From Heterodontus francisci (Eukaryota), in assembly GCF_036365525.1 (NCBI RefSeq), contig NC_090377.1, forward strand, positions 103,368,265 through 103,432,264: a DNA stretch of 64,000 bases. The letters are read 5' to 3'. Both the position numbers and the translations under genes were made by a program. The notes beneath the pieces were generated by a model. It worked only from the letters and a program-made list of their open reading frames with translations. It had not been told where the DNA came from and did no database searches. Below are positions 215 to 41,504 of this stretch, piece by piece (the stretch's first letter is position 1; every line of letters begins with the position of its first letter).

Positions 215-1175
215 TAAAATAAAAGCAAAATACTGCAGATGCTGGAAATCTGGAATAAAAAGCAGAAAATGCTGGAAATACTCAGCAGGTCTGGCAGTAT
301 CTGTGGATTGAGAAGCAGAGCTAAAGTTTCAAGTCTGTAGCCTTTCATCAGAACTGGCAAAGGTTAGAAATGTAATTGGTTTTAAGCAAGTAATGCAGGG
401 GTGGGGGGGTGGGGTGGGGGTGAAGAGGACAAAAGGAGTTAGTGGACAGTCTATCCCCAGAGATGGAGACAGAGAACTCGAGGAAGGGAAGGGAAGGGAA
501 GTGTTGGAGATGGACCACGTTAAGGTGAGAGAAAGGTGGAAATTGGAAGCAAGGTTGATGACTTTGGATGTTCAATCTCTCTGCACCTCTATCCCCTTCC
601 AGGATGGTCTGAGAGCTCTCTGCTTCTTCCTTGAACAGAGGCCCAACAAGTCCCCATCCACCACCACTCTCCTCCGTCTGGCTGAACTTGTTCTCACATT
701 GAACAACCTTCCTTTCAACTCCACTCACTTCCTTCAAATAAAAGGTCTTGCTATGGTACCCACATGGGTCCAAGTTATGCCTGTCCTTTTGTGGGGTCTG
801 TCAAACATTCCTTGTTCCAGTCCTACTCAGGCCCCCTCCCGCAACTCTTTTTCCAGTACATTGATGACTGTATCGGTGTTGTTTCCTGCTCTCGCCCCGA
901 ACTGGAAAACTTAATCAACTTTGCTTCCAATTTTCACCCTTCTCCCACCTTTATACGGTCCATCTTCGACACTTCCCTTTCTCAACTTCTCTTTCTCCAT
1001 CTCTGGGGATAGTCTGTCTACTAATATTCATTATAAGCCCACCGACTCCCACAGCTACCTCGAATACACTTCCTCACACACTGCTTCCTGTAAGGACTCC
1101 ATTGCATTCTCCCAATTACTCCGTCTCCGATGCATCTGTTGTGATGATGCAACCTTCCACAACAGTGCTTCTGAT
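215..1175 (+). mobile_element. Penelope-like element fragment: inverted terminal repeat (215-~420) plus degraded reverse transcriptase
   Basis: Frameshifted PLE RT motifs in ORFs 393-914, 764-1012 and 921-1208 (LAELVLTLNN, GLAM/MGPSYAC, FFQYIDDCIG, HYKPTDSHSYLEY); terminal repeat shared with 28920, 30166, 32817. Confidence 0.8.
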
Positions 1176-1449
1176 TGGGATACCCATTCCCAGCTTATTA
1201 CAAACTAATACTAAAGAAATCTTAAACCCATTGAACAATACCTAACCATCCCAGACCAACCTCAAGGGAAAAAGGGAAGTTTAAATCAGCGCTACTGCAG
1301 AGAGAAAAAGGACAAACTGCAACAATTTTAAGATTTCTGCGTGGATGAGAGTGAATGAAAAAAGGCATGTGTATCTTCCTGTGATTATCTTTTTAACTCC
1401 TATAATGAAATGCTCCCATTGTTGCATTTCATTCTATGTGGTACGGTGG

Positions 1450-2759: not shown

Positions 2760-3035
2760 TTAGAAATCCCTCATACGTCTGAAAGATCCAACAGTTGAGT
2801 TGTAGCCGCCCCAGTCACTGTATCTCCTGTATTCACCGGGTCTCAGGAAGTACTGTCGGCCTTTGTAGTTGGGATGTTCATAGAAGATCCAGTAACCGTC
2901 CATCACATGGCAGGAGTGGATGTCACGGTAACGGAAACGATCATAGACAGATGGACAGTCATCCGTGAATTCCATCATCTGTCCTCCAAAGTCAGGTCTT
3001 TCGTAAATCCTCATTCTGTAGGAGCCTCCTCGGTA
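2760..3035 (-). CDS. CRYG: Gamma-crystallin gene 1, exon 3 (C-terminal domain, Greek keys 3-4)
   Basis: Acceptor TACAG at 3036-3040; 276 nt, [23 protein letters not shown]...[47 protein letters not shown]. Confidence 0.97.
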
Positions 3036-4228
3036 CTGTAATAAAGCATATAATATGATGTAGCAGCAAATATGTGTGTAATATGAATTGAAGAGTATTC
3101 CAGAATTAGAGCTCTTTAGAACAAGAAACATGAAATATGTATACCTATGCCTATTACCGAAGGTAGAAGTTAAAAAGGATTCAGAAATAGATTATTAACC
3201 ATTCACTAAAATGCATCCAATTACTGTGAAGTCATTAGAAACAATGCTGATACCTTATAAAAATGTAACACAAGGGCAATTGAGTCTATTGTGAGTCACA
3301 ACATTTTACTTTAATTGTGTATCGATCATTATTGAAATTACATCTGGATTGTTGCTGGTAGTTCTTGGCTTTCAGAGAAAAGTGGCAAGAATTTCATGAT
3401 GGAACTAAGGTTTCTCTGTTATGAAAAAATATCAATTCATTGGACAAAAGGAGATATGAGATGGGATATGAGCCTTTAAAGTGCTGAGAGGTAGCAGGCT
3501 ATTTCCTTTAAACTTTATATCTTTAACAGATTATCTTGGAGATCAGGGGAAACTGCTGAACCTTCCACTTAGGGACTAAATAGGTTTGGTCAAGTTCCCA
3601 GCAGGGGAAAGAGAAAGTTTGTTAGGTGAGGGCCAGGCCTAATTATGATGGTCACCATCACTGAAGAGCTTTCCTACACTCACTGTCTCAGCAAACGTTT
3701 CAACAAATGTTCTTTAAGCAAGTATGTCTGCCTGAGCTTTGGCACAGTTCATCCGCAGTACTGTCTACAACAATGTTAACACAATTACTTGGAGCCCTGG
3801 GCAAATTTACCAGGAGGTAGTGAAGGACATATGAGCACAATGAATGATTCTGCAGCACTTTTGCGTTCGTTTTTCTGTGTACCTAGTCCAAACTAACAAC
3901 TGGTTAGACACATTCAATATAGTACAGACAAGATTTTTGGTTCTATCTTTCTAATTCTGGTTGTTTATTGCTGTAGTTCAATCTTTTTCCTGATATTTGA
4001 AATAGCACAAAGCAGAATAATACTTTAACTAAACATGGATTTGTCACTAAAGAAAAAAAGAGTAAAAATAGTAATCTTTCAATTTAATATAAAAGACTGC
4101 TACATAATTAATGAAGGGCTGACAATAAATTGCATAAAATGACAGAAAATTATTGATGGGTTATAAAAAATATGAATCACATCAGAAAATGATTTGAAAC
4201 TCATAATTAACATGTAATTATAACTTAC

Positions 4229-4471
4229 GTGTGGGTAGCTGCGACATGACCTGACACAGTCATTGAATCCCATCCAGCGCTGGTAGTCAGGATATTCTCC
4301 CCTGCTCAGAACATACTGGTATCCCATGTAATTGGGTTTCTCATACAGCACCCACCAGTCACTGTCAACACGGATGGAGTTACAGCGATTGACATAAGGG
4401 GACAGGTCAGCACAGTCACTACTGCACTCATAGTGTCGACCCTGGAAGTTCCTGTCCTCGTAAAAGATGAT
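4229..4471 (-). CDS. CRYG: Gamma-crystallin gene 1, exon 2 (N-terminal domain, Greek keys 1-2)
   Basis: CACAG acceptor, GTAAGT donor; canonical 243 nt; [81 protein letters not shown]. Confidence 0.97.
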
Positions 4472-4575
4472 CTGTGGGGGATAAAATAAATCAATTTAAT
4501 CAATAATTTACCAAATTTGATGTATTTCCAAAACAGGTTGTTAACAAATGTAAAAATTATGAGAGTTAACCTTAC

Positions 4576-9376: not shown

Positions 9377-9740
9377 AAGCCTTAATAAAGGATAAAATTA
9401 AGGCACCTAGAAAATCATGAGTTAATTGAAGACAGCCAGCATGGATTTGTATGTCATGCCTGACAAATGTAATAGTTCTTTGAGGAAATGCCAGAATGTC
9501 TTGGTCGGTTAAATGCAGTGAGTATTAAATAAATGGATTTTCACAAGCCGTTTAATAAAGCGCCACATAGGAAGGTTATTGATCAAATAAAAGCAAATAT
9601 TATTCAAGCAAATGTGGCCACATGGGTAGGAAGTTGGTTATATGACAGAAAATGGAAAGCAGTAGGTTATGAATGGACGAGTGGAGTTTAAACACTGGTG
9701 TCTCCCAGGGTCAGTGTTGTGACCGTTGCTCTTCTGATTA
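9377..9740 (+). mobile_element. CR1 LINE RT fragment
   Basis: Degenerate SQHGF, MDFxKxFxKxPH and GVxQGSVL motifs; abuts the truncated LTR. Confidence 0.7.
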
Positions 9741-9829: not shown

Positions 9830-12705
9830 GGTAGGTGATTGGTTGGTGGGTTTTAAGGGTTTTTTTTCCTCTCTTTGCTAGAGCAGTGGTTTAAATTAAG
9901 ACTGGAAAACTATAAAGTACTGCTCTAAATTTACAGCTTAGCCAGTTAAACTGATTAATAACATTTCAACTGGTGTAAGTATAACAGCAAGTGAATTAAT
10001 AAGGGTACTAGCAAAGAGCAGATCTAGAGACATTAATTAAAATTTATCCAAGATAGTAACTGTATTCTAAGAGAGGAAACAGACACTTTTTTAGATCATG
10101 AATGGGCAGCTGAGAGTGTTGCTTGCAATTCCTGCACCATGTGGGAACTTCAGGGCACTGCTTGGGGGGCACATGGAAGTGTCTCCAGCTACTTGAGCTT
10201 GAGCTGAGGAATTTCTGAGCTTGAAGGACAGCTGGAGTCACTGCAGAGCATCAGGGAGGAAGAGAGCTTCCTGGATCGTATGTTCCAGGAGATGGTTACA
10301 ACAGAGGCAGTGAGAGTTCAGGATAGTAGAGGAGAAGTGTAGTAGGAGGCAGGAGATGCAGGAGTTTTAGGGATGTCTGCCACTCTCAAACTGATACTCA
10401 GTAATAGAGACTGCTGGGAGTAATTTTGGAGGAATGCAGTCCAGATCATGGCTGCAATGGCAAGGGACTGCACAGGAGGGAACAGCAAAGAGTAGAAATG
10501 CAGTTGCTGTAGGAAGTTCCAAAGTTAGGGGGACAAACAGGCATTTTTGTAACCATCATCCTGAGTCCTGCATGGTGTGTTGCCTCCCTGTTGTCAATGT
10601 AAAGGAGATCACAGGGAAGGTGCAGAATATTCTGCAGAGGGAAAGGAGTGAGCCAGAAGTTGTGGTTCACGTTGGTGCCATGACACAGAAGGGCAGGCAT
10701 TGAGGCACTATGGTCAGATTTTCTGGAGCTAGGGAGGAAGTTAAATGTAGGACTTCAAAAGTAGTAATCAGAATCAAAGAATGTTTATGCCACAGAAAGA
10801 GGCCACTTGGCCCATTGTGTCTGTGCTGGCCGCAAAACGATCCACCTATTCTGATGAAAGGTCACTGACCCGAAACGTTAACTCTGCTTCTCTCTCCACA
10901 GATGCTGCCAGACCTGTTGAGTATTTCCAGCATTTTTTGTTTTTATTTCAGATTTCCAGCATCAGCAGCATTTTTCTTTTATTCCACCTATTCTAATCCC
11001 ACCTTTCAGCATTTGGTCCATAGCCCTGCAGATTAACAATTTCTGGATTACTCCCAGTGCTACTCACTGGCAAGTGTAGAAATAGGAAGATAGGGATGAT
11101 CAATGTGTGGATTGAGGCATGGGTGCAGGAGGGAGGGCTTCAGATTCTTTGGGGCGTTGAGACCAGTTCTGGGGCAGGAGACCTATTCAAAAGGGACAGG
11201 TTGTACCTTCCTTGTGGGGTGGTTCAATAGTGTGGTTGGGGAGGGTTTAAACAAAGTTGGCAGGGGGATGGGCACCAGTGTATAGAAGTAAAAAAGAGGA
11301 ATAAGGTGCACAAAGTGAGAGCATTGGATCGTGCTAGAGAAGGAAATAGTACCATATCAGAAAGGAGCTGACTAAGAAGGACTATGAGAAATACAAAGAC
11401 AGGTTTAGAATGCATGTATGTAAACGCACAATGTGTGGTGAATTAGGTTGGTCAGCTACAAGCACAAGTAGCCATATGGGAATATAATATAATGGCAATA
11501 ATGGGAATATGGCTTTAAAAATGTTGAGGACTGGGTATTTAATATTCAAGGATATAAAATGTTTAGAAAATATAAGGAAGGAAAAGAAGCGAGGTGGGGT
11601 GGCCGTACTGATTAGGGGTGACATTGTAGTGTTGGAAAGGGATGATGTCCTTGAGGGGGAAAAGACAAAATCCATTTGGTTGGAGTTGAGAAGCAAAAAG
11701 GGTATGATCACGCTACTGGGAATATTCTACAGACCTCCAAATTGTGAGAGAGAGATAGAGGAGCAAATCTGCAGGGAAATCTCAGAGATGTGCAAGAGCT
11801 ACAGACAGGTGATATTTGGAAACTTTAATTATCCAAATCTCAATTGGGATAATGTTAGAATAAAGGATAAGAAGGGGGAGGAATTTATCAAATGTGTTCA
11901 GGAGAACTTCCTTGACCAGTATGTTTCTGGTTCAACTAGGAAGGAGGCATTGCTGGATCTGGTGCTGGGGAATGAGGTGGGCCAAGTGTCTGTGGGAGAA
12001 CATTGGGGCAAGAGTGATCATCATATCATAAAGTTTAGATTAGTAATGGAATTAGTAATGGATTAGCAAGAAACAATCTAAAGTAGAACTTCTCAATTGG
12101 AAGTGGGCTAACTTCAATGGGATGAGAAGGGATCTAGCCAGGGTAAAATGAAACCAAAGATTGACAGGAAAATCTGTAATTGAAAAATGGATGATCTTTA
12201 AGGAGGAGATGTTTCAGCTATGGGATAGGTAAATTCCAATAAGAGGGAAAGACAGGGAAGCAAAGCCAGGGCTCCTTAGATGACAAGGGAGATACAGAAT
12301 ATGATGAACCAATAAAAGAGTGTGTATGATGCTTGTCAGGTGAATTCTTCAAGTGAGAACCAGGCCAAATACAATAAGTTGAGAGGGGAAGTGAAGAGGA
12401 AAATCAGACTAGCAAAGAGAGAATATGAGAATAGAATGGCAGTTAACATAAATACGAAGCCAAAAATCTTCTCCCGGCATGTAAGTAGTGAACAGGTAGT
12501 AAGAGGCGGATCCTATTAGGAGCAAAGAGGGCGAAATCTGCTTAGAAACACAGGGTGAGGCTAAAATACTTAATGAGTACTTTGTATCCTTGTTTACTAA
12601 GGAAGAGGATGCTGATAAAATATTGATTGAAGCAGAGATGGTAAAGGAAATAGATGAGGTGAAAATTGATAGGCAGGATGTACTGGAAAGGCTGGCTATG
12701 TTTAG
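9830..12705 (+). mobile_element. CR1 LINE 5' half: ORF1 (SGNH esterase-like) and ORF2 APE endonuclease, degraded
   Basis: VCCLP...EPEVVVHVG (ORF 10434-10703); GGGVAVLI, YRPPN, GNFNYP, LDLVL, SDHHII (ORF 11509-12066). Confidence 0.85.
10853..10982 (+). mobile_element. Short PLE-terminus insertion carrying a hammerhead motif, 12-bp TSD, nested in a minus-strand CR1 3' tail (10769-11036)
   Basis: TCCACCTATTCT at 10841-10852 and 10983-10994; core CTGATGA-A-AGGTCACTGACCC-GAAACGTT. Confidence 0.8.
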
Positions 12706-18287: not shown

Positions 18288-18563
18288 TTAGAAATCCCTC
18301 ATACGTCTGAAAGATCCGACAGTTGAATTGTAGCCGCCCCAGTCACTGTATCTCCTGTATTCACCGGGTCTCATGAAGTACTGTCGGCCTCTGTAGTTGG
18401 GATATTCATAGAAGATCCAGTAACCGTCCATCACATGGCAGGAGTGAATGTCACGGTAACGGAAACGATCATAGACAGATGGACAGTCATCCTGGAATTC
18501 CATCATCTGTCCTCCAAAGTCAGGTCTCTCATAAATCCTCATTCTGTAGTTTCCACCACGGTA
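18288..18563 (-). CDS. CRYG: Gamma-crystallin gene 2, exon 3
   Basis: TACAG acceptor; 276 nt; [27 protein letters not shown]...[12 protein letters not shown]. Confidence 0.97.
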
Positions 18564-18984
18564 CTGTAATAGAAGTAAATTACACATTTGTGTGCAGGTA
18601 CAAATATATCTATACAGTGCTCAACAAAATTATTGTAAAAGGGTTGTTAGGCATGCAACATCATCAGGGAATCCATTGACTGTTTTGATGAAAATTGTCC
18701 ATACGAAACATTAACTTGCCTTTTCTGTTTCCGGATGTTGACAGACCGATTGTGCATTTCCAGCATTTTGTGTTGGTAAACTGATATTCAGCAATCACAA
18801 TTTTACTATTTCATCAATATTATCAAGCATTCAATCAATGTTATTAACTGTTAAAATCTATGAGCTGGAAGATTTTGGATTGAAGTCTCACTCCAGACAG
18901 TCCTGGTGAATAGAAATGGAGAATTCAGTCTCTGAATACTGATTTGCATTCAGTGGGATACTTGCATTTGATGGGAACATAGGC

Positions 18985-19280
18985 CCATATGAACAGGAAT
19001 GGGCCATTTAGCTCCTCAAGCCAGGTCCACCATTCACTGAGTTCATGGTTAATCTGTGACCTAACTTGCCTTCACCCCATATCCTGTATATAACTTTGTT
19101 CACCAAAACTAACAATTGACTAGCAGTAATTGCCATTTGTCGAAGAGAGTCAAACTTCTACCACTCTTTACATGTAGAAATGTTTCCTAATTTTATTCCT
19201 GAAAGGTCCAGCTCTAAATTTTACACTATGTCCCCAACTCCTCAACCAACAAAAATACTTACTCTCTATCTACCCTATCT
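18985..19280 (-). mobile_element. CR1 3' end remnant in gene 2 intron 2
   Basis: Similar to the CR1 3' end at 22368-22700. Confidence 0.55.
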
Positions 19281-20007
19281 GTTGCGCTATAATGGTGTGT
19301 CAAACCCCCATAGCACCTAGTCAGTGCCTCCCAGCCTGGGTCAGGCTGATGATACAGCTACATAAAAGGTGTCTGCATTACAGTTACAATCCAAAGTGTC
19401 ATCTGCTGGATGTAACAGTAGCGAAAGTCATGAGTTACCTCATGTGCCACTGGACATGGAAGAGGAGATGGTGATTATTATCATAGTTTGATTTTTGTAG
19501 CCATAATTCCAACTTTGAAACCCTCAATATGAATCAGTTTGCATTTTCTTCTGTTGTTTGCTCTAAGGCTATTTCAAGATAGTTAGTTTGACCAGTCCTG
19601 GATCCATCACCTGGGAGAGGAATGGAAGAAAGTCTGAGGACGTCTTCTATTCCATGTTTCCTGGTGAGTCACTCATTCAGTAGTGCCAGCTATATCTATG
19701 AATATGTTTGTGGACTGAACCAATTCAAGTCAGATTTCTCTCACCTTTGTGCAGAGGTAATCTTTCATTCGTTCTTTTCCTAAGACATATTTCATTGGCA
19801 ATTTGCTCAGAGATTGTCCTGATTAGTTGCCATAAATTCTATGGAAGATTGGCAGAAATACCCCACCCCCAACTCCCGACCGGTGTATCCAGCGTTTCCA
19901 TTGATCTTCCATCTATTTACAGCAATCAATCAGGACAGCCCTCTATAATTGTCAAATGTTACAGTATAAGGCCAAAATTTGCAGCTTACAATTTAAATTT
20001 CAAATTA

Positions 20008-20376
20008 GTTTTTTAGTTTTAGTTTTTAGTTTTAGTGATACAGCACTGAAACAGGCCCTTCGGCCCACCGAGTCTGTGCCGATCATCAACCACCCATTTA
20101 TACTAATCCTACACTAATTCCATATTTCTACCACATCCCCACCTGTCCCTATATTTCCCTACCACCTACCTATACTAGGGGCAATTTATAATGGCCAATT
20201 AACCTACCAACCAGCAGGTCTTTGGCATGTGGGAGGAAACCAGAGCACCCGGAGGAAACCCACGCAGATACAGGGAGAACTTGCAAACTCCACACAGGTA
20301 GTAAGTACCCAGACTTGAACCCGGGTCGCTGGAGCTGTGAGGCTGCGGTGCTAACCACTGCGTCACTGTGCCGCCC
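20008..20376 (-). mobile_element. V-domain SINE in gene 2 intron 2, TSD CAAATTA
   Basis: Family sequence as above; CAAATTA at 20001-20007 and 20377-20383. Confidence 0.85.
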
Positions 20377-20540
20377 CAAATTAAAATTAGGATTTATGAT
20401 TAAGGAAATCCATTAAAGTGGGAATGATAAACTATTGGAATTTTTGATTATTAAATAAATAATAGATAAACAGCCATTACAAATATAAATCAATGAACAA
20501 GTTCATTTATGCCTATAAGGACCGTGAATTCATTACTCAC

Positions 20541-20783
20541 ATATGGGTAGCTGCGACATGACCTGACACAGTCATTGAATCCCATCCAGTGCTGGTAGTC
20601 AGGATATTCTCCCCTGCTCAGAACATACTGGTATCCCATGTAATTGGGTTTCTCATACAGCACCCACCAGTCACTGTCAACACGGATGGAGTTACAGCGA
20701 TTGAGGTAAGGGGACAGGTCAGCACAGTCACTACTGCACTCATAGTGCCGACCCTGGAAGTTCCTGTCCTCGTAAAAGATAAT
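20541..20783 (-). CDS. CRYG: Gamma-crystallin gene 2, exon 2
   Basis: CACAG/GTGAGT; 243 nt; [32 protein letters not shown]...[19 protein letters not shown]. Confidence 0.97.
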
Positions 20784-20864
20784 CTGTGGGGAAAGAAAAT
20801 TTGATGAATTTTTTTTTCCTAAGAATTGTGAATAAAATGTGAAAAATATGAGAGGTAACCTTAC

Positions 20865-22367: not shown

Positions 22368-23433
22368 CATATGAATTAGAAGCAGTACTAGGTCACTCGG
22401 CCCTTCGAGCCTACTCCGCCATTCAATAAGATCATGGCTGAACTGATTACTCTACATTTCCACCTACCCCCGATAACCTTCCACCCCCTTGCTTATCAAG
22501 AATCTATCTACCTCTATCTTAAAAATATTCAAAGACTCTGCTTCCACTGCTTTTTGAGGAAGAGAATTTCAAAGACTCACGAAGCTCTGAGAGAAAAAAT
22601 TTCTCCTCATCTCTGTCTTAAGTGGGCGACCCCTTATTTTTAGACAGTGATCCCTAGTTCTAGATTATCCCACAAGAGGAAACATCCTTTCCACATCCAC
22701 TCTGTCAAGACCCCTCAAGATCTTATATGTTTCAATCAAGTCGCCTCTTACTCTTCTGAACTCCAGCGAATACAAGTCCAATCTTTCCTCGTAAGACAGC
22801 CTGCATTAGTCTAGTAAACCTTCTCTGTACTGCCTCCAACGCATTTACATCCTTCCTTAAATAAGGAGACCAGTACTGTACACAATACTCCAGAAGTGGT
22901 CTCACCAATGCCCTGTATAGCTGAAGCATAACCTCCCTACTTTTGTATTCCCCTCACGATAAATGATAACATTCTATTAGCTTTCCTAATTACGTGCTGT
23001 ACCTGCATACTAACCTTATGCAATTCATGCACTAGGACACCCAGATCCCTCTGCATCTCAGAGCTCTGCAATCTCTCACCATTTAGATAATATGCTTCTT
23101 TTTTATTCTTCCTGCCAAAGTGGGCAATTTCACACTTTCCCACATTATGCTCCATTTGCCAGGTCTTTGCCCACTCACTTAACCTATCTAGATCCCTTTG
23201 CAGCCCCCTTTTGTCCTCTTCACAAGTTACTTTCCTACCTATCTTTGTGTCATCAGCAAATTTAGCAACCCATACCTTCGGTCTCTTCATCTAAGTCACT
23301 TATATGAATTGTAAAAAGTTGAGGCCCCATCACAGATCCCTGTGGCACACCACTTGTTACATCTTGCCAACCAGAAAATGACCTATTTATGCCTACTCTC
23401 TGTTTCCTGTTAGCTAGCCAATCTTCTATCCAT
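22368..23433 (-). mobile_element. CR1 LINE, 5'-truncated (RT C-terminus and 3' UTR)
   Basis: GVPQGSV, KFADDTK, LYRALVRPLLEYCVQYWSP in ORFs 22732-23513. Confidence 0.9.
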
Positions 23434-23439
23434 TGAAGT

Positions 23440-24700
23440 TGAGAATAAACTATGGCAGGTTTTCCAAACATCAATCCTAAAGATTGCAAAAGATGTTTGA
23501 AGGGACTTCTCAATTTTTGAATGGTTGGACCTTATGTTTATGCCTCTGCGACTGGAGCTGTAGTGAATTATTTTCCATGATACATTTATTTGGTGAAGTC
23601 CATCTGTACTGTTAAAACCCGTCTCGACATGTTTGGAATGAGTTATAGTCTGCAAAATAACAGTGATTTTGCTTCCATGGTAATGGAACCTATCTGATCA
23701 CATTGAATCTGGAAGAGTCCTAACATGCTGAATTTGGGAAGGATAATCTTGGAGCTTCCAATACCTTGCTGTCATTAAAATTGTTTTAATAGGTCTCTGT
23801 CTGCCACAAAGGACCTTTTTAGTAATTCTGAAGTTTAATTTAAGACCTGATGGTAAAAAGGCTTTACTTTGGCATAAAATATACACCTGAATCCACAGAG
23901 CGCATATATCTCCTTGATATATAATAATGTTTATCACAGGTGCAGATAGTCACTGTTTCTGGATTTCGTTAGATTAGTATACAACCTATATTAGAGGGAG
24001 CTCACATATAAGTCAAAGGAATACTCTGAAGTGGAGAGAATGGAAAGCTGAAGTTGTAACGACTTTACTTAGTGAGGTGGGAACAATATACTGGGTTTGT
24101 TCAAGAAGAAAAATCAACTTCCCAACCTAACATTCTTCAGTTTCTTTAGATTATGTAAGTGACCAGATAGATCAGTGGTATTAAAGGTTTAGGCTAACCA
24201 ATAGATTCTGAATTGGAAACACTCACAGTACAAGAGGGAATTTAAGACAACTGTACATCAACGACACAAACATTTCTTTCTCTCATTTAAAGGTAAATGG
24301 GAAAGGTACTTAGAAATAAAATCAGACTGCATCTCATGCCAGTGAATGAGCGGGCGTCTTGATGCACCTGAGGTAATTACACCAAATTTCCAGGGCAATT
24401 GGTAAATTAGATAAGAAGTGCAAATAAGAAGGAAAAATTCAAGAAAGTTTAGATATACAGATGAAAAGGATTGCTGGAAATTTGGGTAAAGGGACAAATC
24501 TTTAAATATATGTATTTAGGTAGAATGAAAGTAGAGGAATGTGAAGCTAAGAATTACTGTATTGCCATGGGACTACTGCCATGAATCTCCTATACTTCCT
24601 TCTGTGTTTAGGTGACTTTGGCAAAGTAAGAGAAGACAATTAGGCTGCTGGAGGAAGAATTTATTGCCGAATTTCACAGAGAAATCATGTTCTCTGAGTA
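23440..24700 (+). mobile_element. Possible ancient L1/Tx1-like ORF2 remnant
   Basis: Weak, ordered motif traces (LDMFG...N, LPW.W, VIKIVL, KGKWE.YL, KR...W.K); heavily decayed. Confidence 0.35.
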
Positions 24701-25849: not shown

Positions 25850-28800
25850 ATTTCCAGGTTAGTTACAGGTTTATTTCTTCTGTCTGCTACTTTGTTGGGT
25901 ACTTTCTATAGTTGGTTAAATTGTCAATAGCCTACAGTGAGTGATGTGGTAGATGTTGCAGTACTTTTTTGCTGACTTAAAGGCTTCTGCACAGACCAGT
26001 TGCTCCCAGACCTGGGTGGATATCTAACCCTTCTTCTTGGCTTTGAGCATGACTGGGAGAATTAAGTGAGGCCATGAGAAGCAGGGCAAACTGCTAGAAG
26101 ATGGATGAGGAGAGGTAGAAAGGCTCTCAGTAAAAGGCCATATCTATGCAGGGTGCTCAGGGAGATATTCTCCTACCTGACCCTCAATCATGACCAATTC
26201 TTGAGATATCTGTGCTTCAGTAAGGAGGTCCACACTGAAATCTACCACCTGCTGCAGTCATGACTGCAACCTCACAGCAGGTCAAGGACTGCATTGTCTG
26301 TGGCTGTCAAGGTGACCATGTCTGTGAACTTTTATGTAACTGTCTCCTAACAAGCTGCTGCTAGAGATATAAGCAACATCTCACACTTTATTGTGCACTG
26401 TTGCATAAGGGAGCTTACTAGGGCTCTCTGTGCAAAGGGAGACAAATTCAGCTCCTCTGTCTTGAGAGAGACAAGCAGGGTGAATGAGCATAAGGGCTTG
26501 CATGGATTGCAGATTTCTCCATGGTGCAGGGTGCTGTTGATTACAAGCATATTTCTTTACGTGTACTTCATCTCAACTCTGCCATCTACCTGAACTGAAA
26601 GGGATTCCACTCCCTCAACATTCAGCTGGTGTGTGACCATAGACAGCAAATCATGCAGGTCAATGTCCAATATCCTGGCAGCAAACACAAAGCATTACTT
26701 CTGCGGCAGTCCTCGGGCCCAGCTCTATTACCACCATCACGGCAAAACAAAGAGTGGCCACTGGGTGTCAAGGGGGATCCACTGGCAACATGGCTCATGA
26801 ACTCAGTCATCAGCTCACATACACATGCACAGCAGGCATACAACAAGAGCCATGCTGCCTCAAGAAATCTAATAGAGCAGAACATTGGCAAGCTGAAGCA
26901 ATGAATCCACTGACTGCACTGCTCTGGAGCAGCCTTGCACTACTCAGTTGAGTGGGTCTCAGTATTTGTCCTGCTGCGCTGCATGCTGCACAAACTTGCC
27001 ATCATGAGGGAACAACCCTTGCAACCATCTATTAGACAAGAGGCTGAACAGCAGGATGAGGAGGGGTGGAGGAGGAGGAAGCAGAAGAGGGGGACGAGGA
27101 AAGGAGGCTGCATCCTAGAGAACCCTTTTCTGCCCAGGATCTAAATGAACAAATAATTAATGAGCGATACCATTAATCTCAGCCCCAATTCCCCAACAGT
27201 CACGTTCCTTACCTTCCCTCTGTCACTGACCATCACATTGTCTTTTTACCCACAATGGAATGATAAAAGTTCACACAGAATATATATCCCAATCCAAATA
27301 GATCAATTAAATCATGTTATAAAACATTCCAAAATAAACTAATCACCCTTGTACATTCCCTTTGACCCCCTTCCATGTGCCTTTGCTTCTCCTAGTGCTC
27401 CTACAAGGTGCTTCCGCAGTGGCTGCAGTTTGGCAGACAAGGACTGCATTGTGACCATGAACTTTTATGTGTCTCTCATGTTCTGTATCGAATTAATCTG
27501 ATCTCTATTGCACTTTCTGAAATGTCCAATTTGAATTGTTCTGTAATGTATTTTGTTTACAAATTTTATGAATTAAGTATATTTTTGGAAAAGAGAAGTG
27601 TCTAGCTCATTTCAAGATGCTGCAACATGGGGTGAAATTGGGTGCAATGGACTTCAATTGAGGAGACTGCAGATAGCTTTAGAGAATGACCTGATAGCCC
27701 TGGGCATCAAGGGCCCATCCTCAGACTACACATTTCAACCTAGGATGCAGGAGTCTGGGCTGGCTACAGACTACATCAAGGGCATGGCCAAATTGGCAGG
27801 GGTGGGAAGACAAATCTTGAAAGAGGACAGCAGGTTCATTCTCCATGGAGCCACGGCCACTTTCTTGTGACAACGCCTCAACAATCCTAGTATTCTTTTG
27901 GAGAACAAATTGCTGGAGTGCCATGATTTCCTAGAATTCCCTTTGAACAGTGGTTTCTAGAGCCATGATGGCAGCTATCTGAGCTCCCATGGTAGCAAGC
28001 TGAGATTGCATGACATGATATCTGAAAGAGAGAAGGGACAAGAGTAGAAATGTGATGAAGGATGAGGAGAAATTAAGAACTACCAGCTTACACCATCTAC
28101 AGCTTGTAAGTCAGAAGGGATTGTGAAATGAGTGAGAAGTGGGATGAGAAAATTAGCATTAGCAATGCAGATACCATCATCTTCAATGGCTTCAGCCTCA
28201 CCGCTGGCCGTGGCCTAAGCACCATCTCCTCTATGGGTGTTAAAAGATGCAGGCACACCTCTCTCCAATGAGTTAGTTCCTATTCCCTCTGGATATGCAT
28301 GACCTTGTCCTGCAGGAGAGTGGAAACTGAGTCAGTGAGTGTCATACAATTTATTTGGGTGATGTGGCTGTGATAATTGAATAGCTGCCAGTATGGGCAA
28401 GCTGTGTGTTGCGTTTGAGGCTTGCAACAGTGCTAAGTGTGAGGCCGAGGTGAAGCATATAAATGTTGAGTCCCGATTGATAGAGATTTTCGGTAGGCGA
28501 ATGTTGGTGTTGGTGAATTGAGCAGAGGCTTATACTGCAGTTGGTATCATACTGCATTTGAAGATGCATTCACTGATCTTGCCTACTCATGTGAGATCAT
28601 TAAACGTCTGTCTTCACTGCCCTGTTTTGGGATCTATACTCATAGCACTGACCCCCACAGCTATCTCTTTCCACTGCCTTCTCAGTAAACACCTGGGATG
28701 CCTCCTGCTCCTCTGAAGATACAGGACATCTCTTCTCTACTCCACCTCTTCAACCAAGATCCCCAGTCTCATAACATTAGTGCTAACTCTCTATCATGGT

Positions 28801-28915: not shown

Positions 28916-28919
28916 CATG

Positions 28920-29730
28920 AAATAAAAACAGAAAGTGCTGGCAATACTCAACAGGTCAGGCAGCATCTGTGGCGAGAGAAACAGAGTTAACATTTCAGGT
29001 CTGTGCCCTTTCATCAGAACTGGAAAAGGTTAGAAAAGACTTAGGTTTTAAGCAAGTGGAGAGGGTGGGGGGGGGGGTTGCTGCTGTTGGTGGGGAAGAG
29101 AACAAAAGGGAAGGTGTGTGATAGGGCAGAGGACAGGAGAGTTTAAATAACAAAGCTGTCCTGGTACAAAAGCAAAGAGCGTGTTAATGCTTGTGGTGAA
29201 AGACAAAGCATTAGTCCAGGGACAGTGTTAATAGCAGAATAATGAGTAGCTCTGTCTACATGAAAAACAGGCACATAGTTAAAAAATGAAATAATATAAA
29301 AATATAAAAAAGGCCAATCATGTTCTGAAGTTACTGAACTCAGTGTTCAGTCTGCAAGGCTGTAGAGTACTTAATCGAAAGATCAGGCGCAGCTCCCCGA
29401 GCTTGCATTGATGTTCACTGGAACACTGCAGTAGGCGAAAGACAGAAATGTTGGCATGAGAGCAGGGATGTGTCTTGAAATGGCAAGCGACTAGAAGCTT
29501 GGGGTCATGCTTTCGGACTGCGTGGAGGTGTTCCGCAAGCGGTTATCCAATCTGCATATGGTCTCCCCAATGTAGAGGCGACTGCATTGTGAGCAGCGAA
29601 TATAGTATACTAAATTGAAGGAAGTACAAGTAAATCGCTGCTTCACCTGGAAGGAGTGTATGGGGCCTTGGATGGTGAGAAGAGAGGAGGTAAGAGGGCA
29701 AGTATTACAGCTCCAGCGATTGCATGGGAT
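28920..29730 (-). mobile_element. Penelope-like element 3' part: GIY-YIG endonuclease and terminal repeat with hammerhead motif
   Basis: FTCTSFNLVYYIRCSQCSRLYIGETICRL (ORF 29491-29829). Confidence 0.85.
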
Positions 29731-30165
29731 GCTCATGATATTGGGCCCCCTGCTGATGCATGCAGTCAATGAATGGTGTTGATACTGCTGGCTGCACATA
29801 ACAATCACTATAATGCACTGGCAGCACAAAGTTGGTGTGCTGCCTACATTACACCACGTGGGGGCAGGTTATCACACAAAAGCTTGTTGAGAAAACAATT
29901 CACAGCGATATAAAGTATAAATGTGCATTGTTTGTATGTACCAGAGAAAAAAGGACACTGTACTCACTCTGCAATCCTTCTCACAGACATCTCTGATAAA
30001 AGACTCAACAAGTAGTAGAGACATAATTTTGTAGATGCTGGTGAAACCAATCAAAAAATATCTTTTGCTCTAATCAAGATGATTTGTTACAGACATGCAC
30101 AGGAGTGGAATCAATTACATGAATACCATCACTTTCAGGGCACTGACAATCAATCAGCTGGAATG

Positions 30166-30271
30166 TAATAAAAACAAGAAATGCTGGAAATACTCAGCAG
30201 GTCTGGCAGCATCTGTGGAGAGAGAGCAGAGTTAACGTTTCAGGTCAGCGACCTTTCATCAGAACTTCATC
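30166..30271 (-). mobile_element. Short hammerhead-bearing PLE-terminus insertion, 11-bp TSD
   Basis: CAGCTGGAATG at 30155-30165 and 30272-30282; empty site at 45307-45317. Confidence 0.85.
30230..30266 (-). ncRNA. Minimal type I hammerhead ribozyme motif (best-preserved copy)
   Basis: AGTT-CTGATGA-A-AGGTC-GCT-GACCT-GAAA-CGTT-AACT: core CUGAUGA/GAAA, stem II AGGUC/GACCU, stem I AGUU/AACU, palindromic AACGUU stem III. Confidence 0.7.
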
Positions 30272-30840
30272 CAGCTGGAATGGAAGTTTGAAATAGTTTA
30301 CATCTTAGTCACTTCACTTCTACCACATGAATTTGTATCATCTTCAACGTACTGAAGCAATCTGTGATCATTAAAATATATTCAGGAACCGAAAGATGGC
30401 TGTTGAAAAATAATGTTATATTGGTTGCAGTTATGTGTGGTGCTCCGAGGGTGAGGTTAGAGCACATTGTTAGAGCAGAAGAATGAAAGCTTTCTCCTGC
30501 ATTTGATGTTTGTTGTATTGGCTCATGAATGCTTGACATTTATAGAGACCCAAATGAGCTCCATTCTTTAACACTGATACAGTTCATCTCAATCACACAA
30601 AATAGTACCCCCCTTAAAACACTTGAGTGCCATTTATTATACTGAGGCAATTAGAATAAAGAATATCAGTCATGTCCATTTGATCAGAAAATATCTGGTC
30701 AATCACTATTATTTACAAACATTCACATGACATTATTATCACTGATTTTCTGTATTAATCATTCATTCACAAATTGTGGGCTTCACTGGCAAGGCCAGCA
30801 CTTATTGCCCATCCGTAATTGCCCTTGAGAATGTGGTGGT

Positions 30841-32816: not shown

Positions 32817-33837
32817 ATAAAATAAAAGCAAAATACTGCAGATGCTGGAAATCTGAAATAAAAACAAAAAGTGCTGGAAAAACTCAGCAGGTCTAGCAGC
32901 ATCTGTGGAGAGAAGCAGAGTTAACGTTTCAGGTCTGTGACCCTTCATCAGAACTGGCAAAGGTTAGAAATGTAATAGGTTTTAAACAAGTAAAATGGGG
33001 AAGGAGGGGGGGTGGTGGGGGGGGTGGCGATGGTGGTGGAGCATCCAAGGCCCCAGACACTCCTTTCAGGTCAAGCAGTGATTTACTTGTACTTCTTTCA
33101 ATTTAGTATACTGTATTAGCTGCTCACAATGCAGACTTCTCTACACTGGGGAGACCAAATGCAGATTAGGTGACCGCTTTGTGGAACATCTTGCTCAATC
33201 TGAAAACAGGACTCTGAGCTTCCAGTTGCTTGCCATTTCAATACACCCCCCGCCCCCCACTGCTGTCATGCCCACATCTCTGTCCAGGGCCTGCTGCAGG
33301 ATTCCAGTGAACATCAACGCAAGCTCGAGGAACAACACCTTATTTTCCGACAAGGCACACTACAGCCTGCCGGACTGAACATTGAGTTCAATAATCTCAG
33401 AGCATGACTGGCCCTTTTTATTCTAATTTTATTTTATTTTGCTCCATCTTTTTTTTACCATGTGCCTGCCTATTATTTTTTTCATGTTTGTCCTTTTGGC
33501 TAGGGCTGCTCATTATTCTGTCGTTAACACTCCCTCTGCATGAATGCTTTGTCTTTCATCACACCATTAGCACACTCTCTTTGCCTTTGTCCCATGAGTT
33601 TGTCAGTTAATCTCTCTGGTTCTCTGTCCTATCACACATCTTCCCTTTTGTTCTCTTCCTCTAACACCCACCCCCCACCACCACCCACAACCTCCACTTT
33701 ACTTGTTTAAAACCTATTGCATTTCTAATCTTTACCAGTTCTGATGAAAAGCCACTGACCTGAAAGGTTAACTCTGCTTCTCTCTCCACAGATGCTGCCA
33801 GACCTGCTGAGTTTTTCCAGCACTTTCTGTTGTAATT
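32817..33837 (+). mobile_element. Penelope-like element with inverted terminal repeats and GIY-YIG remnant; 9-bp TSD
   Basis: GTAGCTTCA at 32808-32816 and 33838-33846; QGPRHSFQVKQ*FTCTSFNLVYCISCSQC...YTGETKCRLGDRFVEH; hammerhead motifs at 32919-32955 (-) and 33737-33773 (+). Confidence 0.85.
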
Positions 33838-35223: not shown

Positions 35224-35499
35224 CTAGAAATCCCTCATACGTCTGAAAGATCCAACAGTTGAGTTGTAGCCGCCCCAGTCACTGTATCTCCTGTATTCAC
35301 CGGGTCTCATGAAGTACTGTCGGCCTCTGTAGTTGGGATGTTCATAAAAGATCCAGTAACCATCCATCACATGGCTGGAGTGAATGTCACGGTAATGGAA
35401 ACGATCATAGACAGATGGACAGTCATCCTGGAATTCCATCATCTGTCCTCCAAAGTCAGGTCTCTCGTAAATCTTCATTCTGTAGGAGCCTCCCCTGTA
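35224..35499 (-). CDS. CRYG: Gamma-crystallin gene 3, exon 3
   Basis: TACAG acceptor; 276 nt; [18 protein letters not shown]...[10 protein letters not shown]...[12 protein letters not shown]. Confidence 0.97.
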
Positions 35500-36639
35500 C
35501 TGTAATAGAAATGAGATGACATTAGTGATGAAACTGCAAATATACAAAGCTGAGATGATTTAACATCAATCCAATAAGTAAATTATGCTTCAGGCTTATT
35601 ATCAACAAGTAGCTTCTGTATTTTTATACTATATCAATGAATTGTCTGTAAGAGTGCATGTGGAATTGATATTAGTTGGTGCACACCGACAGTGGTTTAT
35701 CAATAGCAGACTTTTTGTTCTTGTTATATATTCGCTGGTTGCTGAATGTTTTATATATCTGATTTATCTCAGTACAATGCAGAGATGGCACTCATTCTAA
35801 GCCAACAACAGTACTTTAAAATATCTCAGCACTTGCAAGATTTCAGCACATTGTCTCTGCCAGAACTTTCTCAATGGTTTCCATTCATTAACTCTCAAAG
35901 TCTACTCACAGGCTTAAGCAAATGAGCACAGTGAACATTGATCAGTGAACAGATTAACCCAATCTAACACAGATCAATCAAACCATTGAACAGTACAGTT
36001 CCTATTGTGAAGAGACTGTTTCTCTATGTTTATTTTTATATGTTTATTGGGATGTGGGCGTCTTTGGCCAGGCCAGGATTTATTGCCCATCCCTGCTGCT
36101 GTGGGGCTGCTTTCTCTGTCCTATAATGTACGAAGAAGATATAGTAAGACGAATGGGGTAAGTACAAATATGTCTGTCAGCTGTCGATGACTTTATTACT
36201 TTCTACACTGTCAATGTGTCAATTTGACCTTCAGTTCTGAATATCTGATTAATTATGAACAAATGTATTCAATTATATCTCAGATGTTAATGTGTTTTGC
36301 AATAAGCTGCCATCATATGACACAGAATGTCCTAACCGATTTGTGCAACGATTGATTTAAGAACCAACCTGCATAAATTAACTGCAGGTCCAAAATTATA
36401 AGGGCTGATACTAACCTCTGGCAGTGCCAGAAATGGGTGGTAGTGGATCAATAAATCAGGCAGGATGTGTGACAGTCAGACAATCCACTACCTGTTAATC
36501 ACCACTGCCGAAAGTTAAAATCAGTCCTGTGGAAGCAGCTGATGGCTCTTCACTGCTGATGCACATTGATTCAATTGTCACTGATCATTTTCTAAGTGTC
36601 AGTTTGATTGGAACATATAAACCACCAAAGATAACTCAC

Positions 36640-36882
36640 ATATGAGTAGGTGCGACATGACCTGATGCTGTCATTGAATCCCATCCAGCGCTGGTAGTCA
36701 GGATATTCTCCCCTGCTCAGAACATACTGGTATCCCATGTAATTGGGTCTCTCATACAGCACCCACCAGTCACTGTCAACACGGATGGAGTTACAACGGC
36801 TGAAGTAAGAGTGCAGGTCAGCACAGTCACTACTGCACTCATAGTGCCGACCCTGGAAGTTTCTGTCCTCGTAAAAGATGAT
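36640..36882 (-). CDS. CRYG: Gamma-crystallin gene 3, exon 2
   Basis: CACAG/GTGAGT; 243 nt; [81 protein letters not shown] (my translation; this frame is not in the ORF track). Confidence 0.97.
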
Positions 36883-36981
36883 CTGTGGAAAGATACAGGT
36901 TTATTCATTCATAATTTCTCAAACTAGGCAATACTGAATGTAGAATTCTAATACAATTTATAAGCTCTGAGTTTTCTTTAC

Positions 36982-37924: not shown

Positions 37925-40630
37925 AAAACAAAGAATGACAAAACAAATAGAACTACACAAAGTAAGTAAGAAAAGAAAGTAGTAATGAATATCAAGATCC
38001 AAACAAATATGTTTCTCAATTATTTTTGGAAAAAGAGAGTGGTCAGAAGCAATGTAAACTGGTAATGGCGATATTGTCAATGATCATAAGGAAATAGTTG
38101 ACATGCTGAATACTTATTTTGCATCAGTATTTTTAGTAGAGAAAGAGGTCAGCATGTCAGACATCCCGATGAGACTGATATTGAATCAATGACAGGATCT
38201 CACCCAGAATAACTTTAGCAAAAGAACAGTAATGATGAAAATAATGGCATGAAAGCGTGACAAATCTTTCACAAATGCTTTGCTTCCCAAGATGTAAAAG
38301 AAGTAGGTGAGGTCATTGCAATTAGAGACATTCAATAAATGTTGGCCTTGCCAGTGACACCAACATCCCATGCCCTAACTATAATCTAACGTTCTCTCGA
38401 TTTGGGAACCACTCCTTTTAATTGGAACTTGGATATGTCACCCCACTATTTAAGGAAACTGACAGAGTGAAACCAGGGAATTATAGACCAGTTAGCCTAA
38501 CATCTGTTGTCAGTAAATTACTGGAGTCTATAATTAAGGGTAGGATGAGTGAGCACCTTGAAATTTTCAACTGATCTGAGAGAGCCAGCATTGATTTGTA
38601 AAGTGCAGGTGATGCCTGACAAATCCGATTGAATCTTTTGAAGATATGACTAAAGTAGTGGACAGTAGAATGTCTATGAATTTTATCTATATGGATTTCC
38701 ATAAAGTCCTTCATGAGAGACTGCTGGCTAAAGTTGAAGTTCATGCAATTGAAGGCAAATTAATGACCTCCTTTGGAAATTTGCTGAGTAGCAGGAGACA
38801 CAGAGTAGGGATAATGGGCAGGTACTCCAATTGGTAGGATGTGACTAGTGGTATCCCACAAGGATCTGTGTTTGGACCTGAAATATTCACAGTATCTATT
38901 CATGACTTAGATGATGAGGTGGAAAGCCACATATTCAAATTTACCATGACTAAAAGATAGGAGGCTGTATAAGCAGTGCAGATGAGCATAAAATTCCAAA
39001 GAGATATGAATAAATTAAGTGAATTGGCAAAACTGCAGCAAATAGGTTTCAATAGGGGTCCAGGGCAAAGGTCATTAAGATGTCATAAAAAGTTCAGAAA
39101 ATAATCAAAAAGGCTAAAGGAATGGTGGCCTGTATATCTCGAGGACTAGAATAAAAGGGGGCAGAAGTCATGTGTTACTACCAGGTGAGAAAGGGTCTAG
39201 GGTGCCCTTTCAGCCTTCACCTGGTCTTACTGCAATAGGGTTTAATTTTAAACACACCGTGTTATTAGCTCCCCCTTGGAGAATCCTTGTTCACAGCTTT
39301 CCAATTACAAGACAAAGAAACTAGCACAAACAGGCTTTCTTAGGGTTAAAGAAGAAAGGTTGAAATTTATTAAACTTAAACTTAAACTCTAATTTGGTTA
39401 ATGCCTACGGATACATGACACACCCACACTAGCTAGGATACACAATACACACATGCAAATAGAGACAGAAAAGAGCAGAAGAAAAAAAGTGGAAAAGTTT
39501 GAGGCAATATCTGAAGATTTTTTGTTACAGTTCTTCAAACTCACTGTAGAGTCCTTGATTGTAGGTATATCTTGCTTTTCTCTGGGGCCCAGTATTCTTC
39601 TTAAACCTTGTTCACTGTAGGAGACTTTTCTCTCTTGGGGTTCATGTGTCTTCAGTGGATTCAGAGGCTTGTGAGAAAGAGATGGCAGCAGGCAGGAGAG
39701 ATCTTCTCAGTCCAGGAGCAAACAGACACATTGAGTTCAAACTGTTTGTACAATTCAGAAAACCCCAGGTTGCCAAGAAGCTTAGTCATGTGAATAACTG
39801 GTCTGACCATGTCTTGAATTGAATCACCTTAGCAGTCTCTGGAATGCTCCTCTTACACACAAAAGTCCATTGTGGATTGAATGTGTCAGGGAATGGTCCT
39901 TTATCTTTCCACTCACCATCTGTTAATATGCAAATGTCTTTTCCAGACACGACTGATCTGTTCAACAAGTCCTTTCTTCACTCCAGTAACAGTTTAAAAT
40001 CAACGTTCAAGAAAAGTAATGTGCCTCATTCTTGGCAGGTGGGGGTCTAGATGACACATGCTTCGGCAACACGAAGCCTTGATTAGATCCCACCTGGAGC
40101 ACTGTGAACAATTCTGGGCACCGCACATTAGGTGGAATATATTGATCTTGGACGGACTGCAGAGTAGGTTTACCAGAATGATACCTGGATTCCAAGGGTT
40201 GAATTATGAGGAGATATTATGCAAATTGGGGTTTTATTTCCTTGAATTTAGAAGGTTAAGTGGTGAGTTGATTGAAGTTTTCAAGATCTTAAGGGAAACA
40301 GATAGGCGAGATAGATAGAAAATATTTCCACTATCTGTGGAGTCTGTGACCATGTGGCATAGTTTAAAAATTAAAGCCAAACATTTTAGGATTGAAATTA
40401 AGAAACAATTCTTCACAGAAGGGGTGGTAGAAGTTTGGAAATATCTTTCTCAAGCAGCAACTGTTGCTGGAACAATCATAAATTTTAAATCTGAGATCGA
40501 TGCATTTATGTTAACCAAATGTATTAAGGGATAAAGGGCAAAGGCAATTGGAATTCGGTGGCAGAGCAGTCATGATCTCACTGAATGGTGGAACAGGCCA
40601 TAGGGGCTAAATGGCCTCCTCCTGTTCTTA
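37925..40630 (+). mobile_element. CR1 LINE (RT and 3' UTR), decayed, interrupted by a solo LTR
   Basis: NYRPVSLTSVV, YMDFHK, GIPQGSV, LIRSHLEHCEQFWAPH motifs. Confidence 0.85.
39173..40056 (-). mobile_element. Solo LTR of the same family as 4986-5894, TSD CATG
   Basis: Reverse-complement homolog of the 5' LTR; CATG at 39169-39172 and 40057-40060. Confidence 0.9.
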
Positions 40631-40702
40631 TGATATGCTATGTAATTCCCTTTTGAAGGTTACTATTGAGCCTGCTTCCCCCACACTTTCAGGCATTGCA
40701 TT

Positions 40703-41504
40703 TGTTATGACCAGCTGAGAAATGTGTCTAGGGGACGTTTGCTATCTTTACCTGGTCTTAGTGTAACAGGGTTTACTTTTAAATACACTGTGTTTTGAGC
40801 TCCCCTTTTTGTGAATCCTTGATCACAGTTTTTCCAATTATAAGACAAAGAAATCAATTCACACAGGCTTTCTCAGGTTTAAAGAAGAAAGATGAAAGTT
40901 TATTAAAACTTCAAACTTAAACTCTAATACAGTTCACGTCTAAGGATATATGACGCACCCACGCTAGCATGCACACATGATACACACATGCAAATAGGGA
41001 CAGAAAAGAGCAGAAAAAAGATAAGTAGAACACTTTGAGGCAATATCTTGTTATTGTTTCTCGAGCTCGCTGTAATCTTTGACTGAGGTTATGGTCTTGC
41101 GTTTTGTTGGGGCCCAGTATTCTTCGTAAACCTTGTTCATGTAGGAGATTTTTCTCTCTTTGAGTTTATGTGTCTTCACAAGATTCAGTTCCGTGGGAAA
41201 GAGATGGAGGCAGGCAGACTTCAATCCATGAGCAGACAGCTTTGTCTGAGTTCAAATCCTGTTTTCTCCAATTTAAAACTCTCTGTTCAGAACTCTGCAA
41301 CAGCCAGTTAGTCATGTGACTAAAACTGGTCTTACCACTTCTGTGTGTTGGGGAAGCAACCATGGGGTCCCCATTGTTTCAACATTGTCTGATACTATGC
41401 AAATGTCCTTCCAGACAGGTCTTGCAATTTTAAGTTTTTGTTCATGTGGTGAAAGAATTGCATGCCTCAGTCTTAGCAGGTGGGGGCGGGAGGTTTGCCT
41501 GACA
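40703..41504 (-). mobile_element. Solo LTR, related subfamily, TSD CATT
   Basis: TGTTATGACCAG...CCTGACA; CATT at 40699-40702 and 41505-41508. Confidence 0.85.

Follow-up and report, generated by a model that had tools for sequence, protein, structure and literature searches.

Hammerhead motifs in a crystallin cluster of Heterodontus francisci as probable passive copies of a Neptune-type Penelope-like element

Minimal type I hammerhead motifs (min-HHR) have been described in the pseudo-LTRs (pLTRs) of metazoan Penelope-like elements (PLEs) by Cervera and De la Pena (2014, PMC4209133), and the family reported here is a further member of this published motif class. As far as the accessible portions of that paper go, its motifs and ours share the type I arrangement with a 4-bp stem I, the lack of a helix III beyond the palindromic 15.2-16.2, an extra base between positions 9 and 10.1, presence in both terminal repeats, and thousands of solo copies. 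They differ in that the older subfamilies here carry A-U or G-U at 10.1-11.1 and the youngest carries U4C; that paper describes the G10.1-C11.1 pair of PLE hammerheads as highly conserved without making it obligatory. The supplementary lists examined from it hold no entries for sharks, skates or Callorhinchus, and its accessible text contained no treatment of where copies end relative to the motif.

In the available part of Craig et al. (2021, PMC8557442), the role of the hammerhead in PLEs is called unclear. For the PAc element of Anolis carolinensis, the accessible sections of Frangieh et al. (2024, PMC11167929) describe two internal start sites of reverse transcriptase (RT) that make the tail, an unprocessed RNA as the main template, and a ribozyme that cuts only with protein; they also describe the hammerhead as dispensable for insertion in vitro, with no RNA ends at the cut. 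Here we analyze a stretch of 64,000 nucleotides (the window) from H. francisci in which seven such motifs lie. In our view these are probably passive copies of a pLTR hammerhead, and the short ones are likely run-off cDNAs of uncut RNA.

Motif copies of the window and their host element

The sequence-only reading of this DNA had listed seven dispersed motif sites, and reading each at its coordinates revealed the motif or a decayed version of it in every case (Table 1). It had also called the best copies intact, which applies to two of the seven, the other five being decayed. The complete motif, written AGUU / CUGAUGA / extra A / 5-bp stem II / GAAA / CGUU / AACU, survives undamaged only in 30230-30266(-) and 32919-32955(-), which are the sole copies with the core and both stems, zero broken pairs, and a pass under the strict descriptor. 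From 5' to 3', the focal copy at 30230-30266 consists of stem I (AGUU), the core segment CUGAUGA, the extra A, stem II (5 bp, closed by a loop of 3 nt), GAAA, C15.2-G16.2, U16.1, U17, and the 3' strand AACU (hammerhead numbering after PMC4209133), with the predicted cut between 30234 and 30233. The core C3-U4-G5-A6-N7-G8-A9 ... G12-A13-A14-A15.1 ... U16.1-H17 is complete in both intact copies. The copies at 319 and 28985 have each lost one stem II pair and the ACGU palindrome, the copy at 33737 has two broken pairs and an altered 15.2, and the copy at 10847 retains its palindrome. The copy at 18682 is tied to the family by its 3' flank alone (76% over 71 nt, E 5e-8). A palindromic AACGUU had been proposed in place of stem III; the palindrome is present, but the part capable of forming helix III is ACGU (15.1-16.1). 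A14 and U17 belong to the core, and related families carry C at position 17.

Table 1. Coordinates of the features in the window
Feature	Position	Strand	Remark
Intact minimal type I hammerhead motif	30230..30266	-	U4, A10.1-U11.1; oldest subfamily type
Solo insertion of ~100 nt, hammerhead plus 3' part of pLTR	30166..30266	-	5' end coincides with initial base of stem I
11-bp target-site duplication, 5' copy	30272..30282	-	Read from sequence; 5 extra bases between copy and element
11-bp target-site duplication, 3' copy	30155..30165	-	Read from sequence
Intact hammerhead motif	32919..32955	-	U4, G10.1-U11.1 wobble; middle subfamily type; within inverted pLTR 32818-33027
TATA-like box, putative promoter element	32980..32986	-	31-25 nt upstream of first base of stem I
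5'-truncated element	33040..33837	+	GIY-YIG remnant 33040-33404, 3' UTR, decayed hammerhead 33737-33773
5'-truncated element	28918..29778	-	GIY-YIG remnant 29324-29778, decayed hammerhead 28985-29021
Rearranged element	215..1178	.	pLTR 215-436(-) with decayed hammerhead 319-355, RT remnants 438-559(-) and 555-1178(+)
Solo insertion plus tail	10847..10983	+	Intact core with three broken pairs; 5' end 2 nt inside stem I; 12-bp target-site duplication
Old, heavily decayed pLTR fragment	18682..18774	+	C3 and stem II lost
Gamma-crystallin-like gene 1	2763..4474	-	Two large exons; host bystander
Gamma-crystallin-like gene 2	18291..20786	-	Two large exons; host bystander
Gamma-crystallin-like gene 3	35227..36885	-	Two large exons; host bystander

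The model or descriptor search that had been proposed as a check gave a divided answer: the strict descriptor passes the two intact copies, and an Rfam scan returned no hammerhead match at E up to 5, a miss that would be expected for motifs without helix III. In arbitrarily placed stretches totaling 610 kb, the strict descriptor found 5 matches, against 0 in each of 5 shuffles. Genome-wide (6.0 Gb), the exact focal form matched 6,534 times, the pattern with stem II left free 21,700 times, and the pattern with ten variable positions free 64,030 times, the reversed control pattern yielding 0 each time. The motif matches thus exceed chance.

The motif lies in the pLTR of a recently active Neptune-type Penelope-like element. 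Starting from a GIY-YIG remnant of the window, we reached intact frames, including one array (L084/L085, G000:C2:92976000-92991900) of four consecutive 3,296-bp units with 0 differences among them. Each unit holds an intact 916-aa frame and one motif between frames, placed 377 nt past the stop and ~170 nt ahead of the first Met of the RT/GIY-YIG frame; the assignment of the motif to minimal type I hammerheads of Penelope-like termini, with a predicted cut after GUU, is supported. The 916-aa frame matches the Pfam families RVT_1 (E 1.2e-5) and, at its C terminus, GIY-YIG (E 0.0018), both under the Pfam cut-offs, and a PDB sequence search bearing on a telomerase-like RT gave no relevant match. 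Between RT and endonuclease (EN) lies a C-x4-C-x2-C linker, a sequence feature that points to the Neptune or Nematis type.

Identity of the window remnants to the young unit is 83-88%, and their 5'-truncated and inverted arrangements are the usual ones. As had been read, the motifs at 28985(-) and 33737(+) each have a GIY-YIG remnant on their 5' side, in the same orientation, and the element that ends at 33837 stands head to head with the inverted pLTR. Tandem and partial-tandem pLTRs, inverted 5' copies (an inverted partner accompanies 53 of 166 copies), and an optional tail are all present in the family. At many loci (e.g. L193, L148, L212) we also observed short head-to-head fold-back insertions that pivot in or just before the hammerhead. 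The L084/L085 array further indicates that the family was active very recently, and its units carry U4C. Between hammerhead and first Met (L084:4143-4275) there are four successive pyrimidine-tract/AG motifs and an upstream frame of 30 codons, which is in frame with the main frame and closed by one stop; the contigs revealed no splice joint in this stretch.

The setting of the motifs in a lens-gene cluster had also been pointed out, and three closely related beta/gamma-crystallin genes, gamma-crystallin-like and ~16 kb apart on the minus strand, are indeed present; a link to the motifs is what failed to appear. Copies might be kept near these genes or act on them, for example by co-transcriptional cleavage downstream of a poly(A) site, and the intact motif at 32919 does lie 2.3 kb downstream of gene 3 on the same strand. 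We nevertheless regard such a role as extremely improbable. By one method, the window holds 6 copies against 36 in 540 kb of arbitrarily placed stretches (4.3 expected, p 0.26), which is an ordinary density that leaves enrichment near the gamma-crystallin genes unsupported; five of the seven motifs are decayed, the core is not conserved above the flank, and the sole intronic copy (18682), the most decayed of the seven, is antisense to the middle gene, within the intron that separates its two large exons. By extrapolation, the genome contains ~400,000 copies of the family. The window copies are ordinary debris of the element, presumably with no role for the crystallin genes, and the family is well suited to tests.

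Other repeats share the window. We noted an LTR-retrotransposon-like remnant (5030-9380) with a SCAN-domain frame (6491-7108) and related terminal repeats at 39194-41019, a DDE_Tnp_4 (Harbinger-like) transposase remnant (26351-26951), and CR1/L2-type LINE fragments (11488-13240, 22937-23950, 52788-53190, and 54784-57270), two of which have endonuclease and RT matches.

Variation of the fold among copies and families

Pair 10.1-11.1 is G-C in 44, G-U in 36, A-U in 27, A-C in 1, and other in 2 of 110 copies that were selected by their downstream flank, most of them from the first 12 Mb of one contig. Mean divergence orders the three main classes by age, from A-U (4.7%, oldest) through G-U (2.0%) to G-C (0.6%, youngest); the focal copy is A-U and lacks the G10.1-C11.1 pair of the youngest class. 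U4C is found in this youngest class (45 of 110 copies). CpG decay was considered as the source of U4 and U11.1 in the older copies and rejected, because the partner G rarely changes (G5 and G12 to A in just 3 of 110 each) while the CpG at 15.2-16.2, taken as a control, is seen to decay in either direction (15 and 12 of 110 copies). Within the family, the covariation amounts to a few events on one lineage.

Between subfamilies and families the stems do covary, and the selection signal lies between masters. The covariation check that had been suggested accordingly found compensatory changes in stems I and II at this level, with few independent events. A sister subfamily with a 6-nt loop, retrieved with the stem positions searched as N, carries A10.2 in all 16 copies and U11.2 in 15 of them. 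Among eight representatives hand-picked for intactness, 13 columns are invariant, every one of them core, and in 8 of the 9 pairs both partners vary; ACGU is unchanged and an extra nucleotide stands between 9 and 10.1 in all eight, the extra A being present in 106 of the 110 flank-picked copies. Rare older sister subfamilies (L275-L300, L268, and L271) combine the same 3' flank with other stem II sequences, and most copies of the 6-nt-loop subfamily likewise begin near stem I.

Within the 110 copies, mismatches affect 28 of 1,098 core positions (2.6%) and 127 of 5,918 positions in the flank (2.1%), which was itself partly used for selection. The core decays as fast as the flank, and integrated copies therefore decay neutrally. 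This, together with the broken pairs or core in five of the seven window motifs, leaves the suggestion that all seven are working self-cleaving RNAs unsupported.

The motif of the window family might no longer be catalytic, its stems being retained as a protein-binding or promoter-proximal RNA or DNA signal while the core drifts, as in U4C. This U4C, which lowers activity in vitro yet permits viroid infectivity according to the accessible part of PMC3088659, did not hinder a burst of near-identical copies, and the fact that it marks the subfamily that is both youngest and most active is in keeping with weak or absent selection on the ribozyme. The older classes, moreover, carry A-U and G-U in place of the usually conserved G10.1-C11.1, and insertion in vitro was unaffected by ribozyme mutants in the portion of PMC11167929 available. 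We nonetheless consider a loss of catalysis unlikely, given that the other core positions are invariant across subfamilies and in a family with 33% RT identity and that 10.1-11.1 passed through a wobble to a canonical pair. Selection acting on master elements would instead maintain the fold, in the form of a ribozyme that is slow or depends on protein.

Copy ends and the predicted start of the RNA

If a cut RNA serves as template, the cut should coincide with one of the ends of the copies. In 166 copies chosen without regard to the motif, 49 of the 5' ends fall at -35 to -30 from the cut, 8 within -3 to +3, and 1 at the cut itself, so that clustering of 5' ends at the cut was rejected for the window family. 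The pile-up coincides with the first four bases of stem I and is seen in all three age classes. After removal of inverted copies, 31 of 85 copies at risk end at the start of stem I (0.061 per nt vs ~0.01 beside it, p 1e-17), and 5 of 106 end at -3 to +1 (p 0.2; 0.009 per nt at the cut). Target-site duplications of at least 7 bp accompany 10 of 33 copies vs 5 of 660 controls, and these duplications abut the stem I ends. As for the 3' ends, 151 of 166 fall in two clusters, 65 and 105 nt past the predicted cut, and none lies at the cut in 58 upstream-anchored rows (two of which are the same window copy) kept after 58 of 116 rows were dropped as reverse matches to inverted panel members. Finally, 127 of 128 distinct motifs run uninterrupted through the cut. 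The window family thus shows no trace of cleavage, and its integrated copies likely record uncut RNA.

Two further observations were set aside. A GUC just ahead of stem I in the young class might have marked a second cut, but the older classes have GCC or GCU there. A depth step at the motif in contigs was not used, as it tracks copy number and the likeness threshold.

Dimer processing of tandem transcripts has been proposed in PMC4209133, as far as its text was accessible, and the motif could in principle cleave as a dimer, with ACGU forming helix III between two motifs, to yield unit-length or circular templates from tandem transcripts. ACGU is invariant in all eight representatives, perfect multi-unit tandems exist, and dimers of the Schistosoma motif gave low activity in the accessible portion of the same paper; four joints at the cut in another family (see below) suggest that in this genome a cut RNA is likely able to serve as template. 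We still hold this to be quite unlikely for the window family, in which no excess of 5' or 3' ends occurs at the cut (circular templates would leave none), 3,296 nt separate the two motifs that a transcript carries, and cofolded monomers are predicted to prefer a swapped stem II over helix III. With such spacing, and with the one vertebrate PLE hammerhead that was assayed together with its protein cutting only when this was present in the part of PMC11167929 available, the assumption that cleavage as a dimer is the only route is not supported.

In the long copies of all classes, a TATA-like box, imperfect and AT-rich, occupies -31 to -25 relative to the base that opens stem I, at equal spacing, and an initiator-like site spans this base. 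The first base of stem I, where 5' ends pile up 30 nt past the TATA-like box, is likely the transcription start. TATA and Inr elements have been described in a rotifer pLTR (PMC3846280), and an internal, TATA-less promoter in the Penelope of Drosophila virilis (PMC2377424), in the sections of these two papers that were accessible. An extra G ahead of the start, expected from a cap, is unsupported (5 of 28 copies, p 0.46).

Instead of a transcription start, the 5' pile-up could reflect a 3' splice site, with a branch-like site and a CAG at -33/-32. A CTAAY-like word and CAG do precede -31 in long copies, and the intron end of the D. virilis Penelope abuts helix I according to the accessible part of PMC4209133. 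However, the duplications abut the element, and no shared upstream exon or other sequence precedes the pile-up in 31 copies, of which 15 keep A-33 and 19 keep G-32, with -34 being random. Similarly, a pyrimidine tract with CAG 3' of the motif gave no sign of being a used splice acceptor, no GT..AG being found among the 15 joints listed of 19; this check used the contigs of four runs, which lose rare forms and cannot show ends, and it weighs little. We therefore regard splicing as a very unlikely origin of the pile-up.

Returning to a transcription start at stem I, the TATA-like box and the initiator-like site would start transcription at its first base, and RT would prime internally at either of two sites. 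Priming in the 5' copy of the terminal repeat would reach the RNA end after 100-140 nt, and the resulting stub would be integrated. A cut would remove the first 33 nt, and cut RNA would thus rarely or never be an insertion template. None of ten full-length frames starts at -33, their starts lying further upstream or inside an inversion, and therefore longer templates or template jumps must also occur. The family supplies intact near-identical elements, a natural ribozyme series (A-U, G-U, G-C; U4 to C4), and a map of copy ends, and such material renders models of the start site and of protein-assisted cleavage directly testable.

A subtelomeric family and comparison with known systems

A search for further hammerheads turned up a distant family, with an RT 33% identical, whose motif has an unchanged core, a stem I of 6-7 bp, and a stem II of another sequence. 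Its pattern matched 230 times vs 10 for the control; 98 of the first 100 of the 230 matches lie within ~0.25 Mb of a contig end, on the plus strand at left ends and on the minus strand at right ends. Oriented subtelomeric arrays were observed at many contig ends of G000, e.g. L234-L242 and L264-L267 (C1:66000-95700, C2:66000-75900). The cut is followed by a base other than G in 75 matches; 70 of these can be sorted into four types of joint (56, 6, 5, and 3 rows), the remainder being 3 point variants and 2 internal matches that are probably due to chance. The four types enter different points of the family's own RT coding sequence (L267 9832, 9289, 9889, and 9596), with no microhomology in three types and one base in one. 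Within the first 100 of the 230 rows, no joints occur at +1 to +10, save one 2-nt insertion at the cut; the pattern is blind to joints 5' of the cut, and the rows represent four events amplified by array duplication. Since the first base of all four partners is A, and the motif also occurs in a variant whose cut is followed by A, a joint may be one base later. The family carries the Zn-linker and the start of the GIY-YIG domain, and no intact endonuclease was seen in the loci examined.

The simplest reading is that an older, 5'-truncated copy at the chromosome end received a new copy made from an RNA whose end was the ribozyme cut. Four joints exactly at the cut are likely a trace of the subtelomeric ribozyme working in the animal, as judged from the genomic joints. 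It is conceivable, at somewhat short of even chances, that one genome puts the hammerhead to two uses: the transcript of the dispersed family would start with the ribozyme and insert only as uncut RNA, whereas in the subtelomeric family the cut would form the template's 3' end, and new copies would be added head to tail onto 5'-truncated ones at chromosome ends. If this is true, the four joints are evidence that a PLE hammerhead cleaves in vivo, and they suggest that this vertebrate has a HeT-A/Terminon-like array of retroelements at its chromosome ends; if the joints hold, they also supply the missing positive case and, with the window family, a matched pair of cutting and non-cutting families in one genome. 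Literature searches, with most subscription papers outside their scope, found no shark case of such subtelomeric joints.

The comparisons that follow draw on the accessible parts of the papers cited. The window family resembles PAc in two internal RT start sites (putative here) that give an optional tail, in the likely use of uncut RNA as template, and in the absence of ends at the cut (PMC11167929). PAc, however, is of the Poseidon type with a motif that overlaps the start codon, whereas the family here has a Neptune/Nematis-type linker and a motif ~170 nt before the Met; cleavage of PAc was demonstrated, while the cut of the window family is predicted. With the Neptune-clade EN+ PLEs of Craig et al. 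(PMC8557442), our element has in common a single frame of RT and C-terminal GIY-YIG, a CX2-5CxxC linker, partial tandems, inverted 5'-truncated copies, and a tail, although the Neptune assignment rests on the linker, which is common to Nematis.

The non-LTR retrozymes of Li et al. (2026, bioRxiv 10.64898/2026.07.22.740005), present in one chondrichthyan, are likewise non-coding, related to pLTRs, and equipped with a type I hammerhead. Retrozymes are defined by short non-coding tandem units, each bearing a hammerhead, whereas the window copies are solo or sit on truncated coding sequence, and the short copies of our family share their diagnostic states with the long ones in every age class.

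The subtelomeric family resembles the Terminon/Athena elements (Arkhipova and Yushenova 2019, PMC6431247) in its head-to-tail 5'-truncated arrays at chromosome ends and in the hammerhead at the 3' end of the unit. Terminon/Athena elements have no endonuclease and bear telomeric repeats after the hammerhead, whereas the subtelomeric family carries the Zn-linker and GIY-YIG start, and its joints pass from the cut directly into RT coding sequence.
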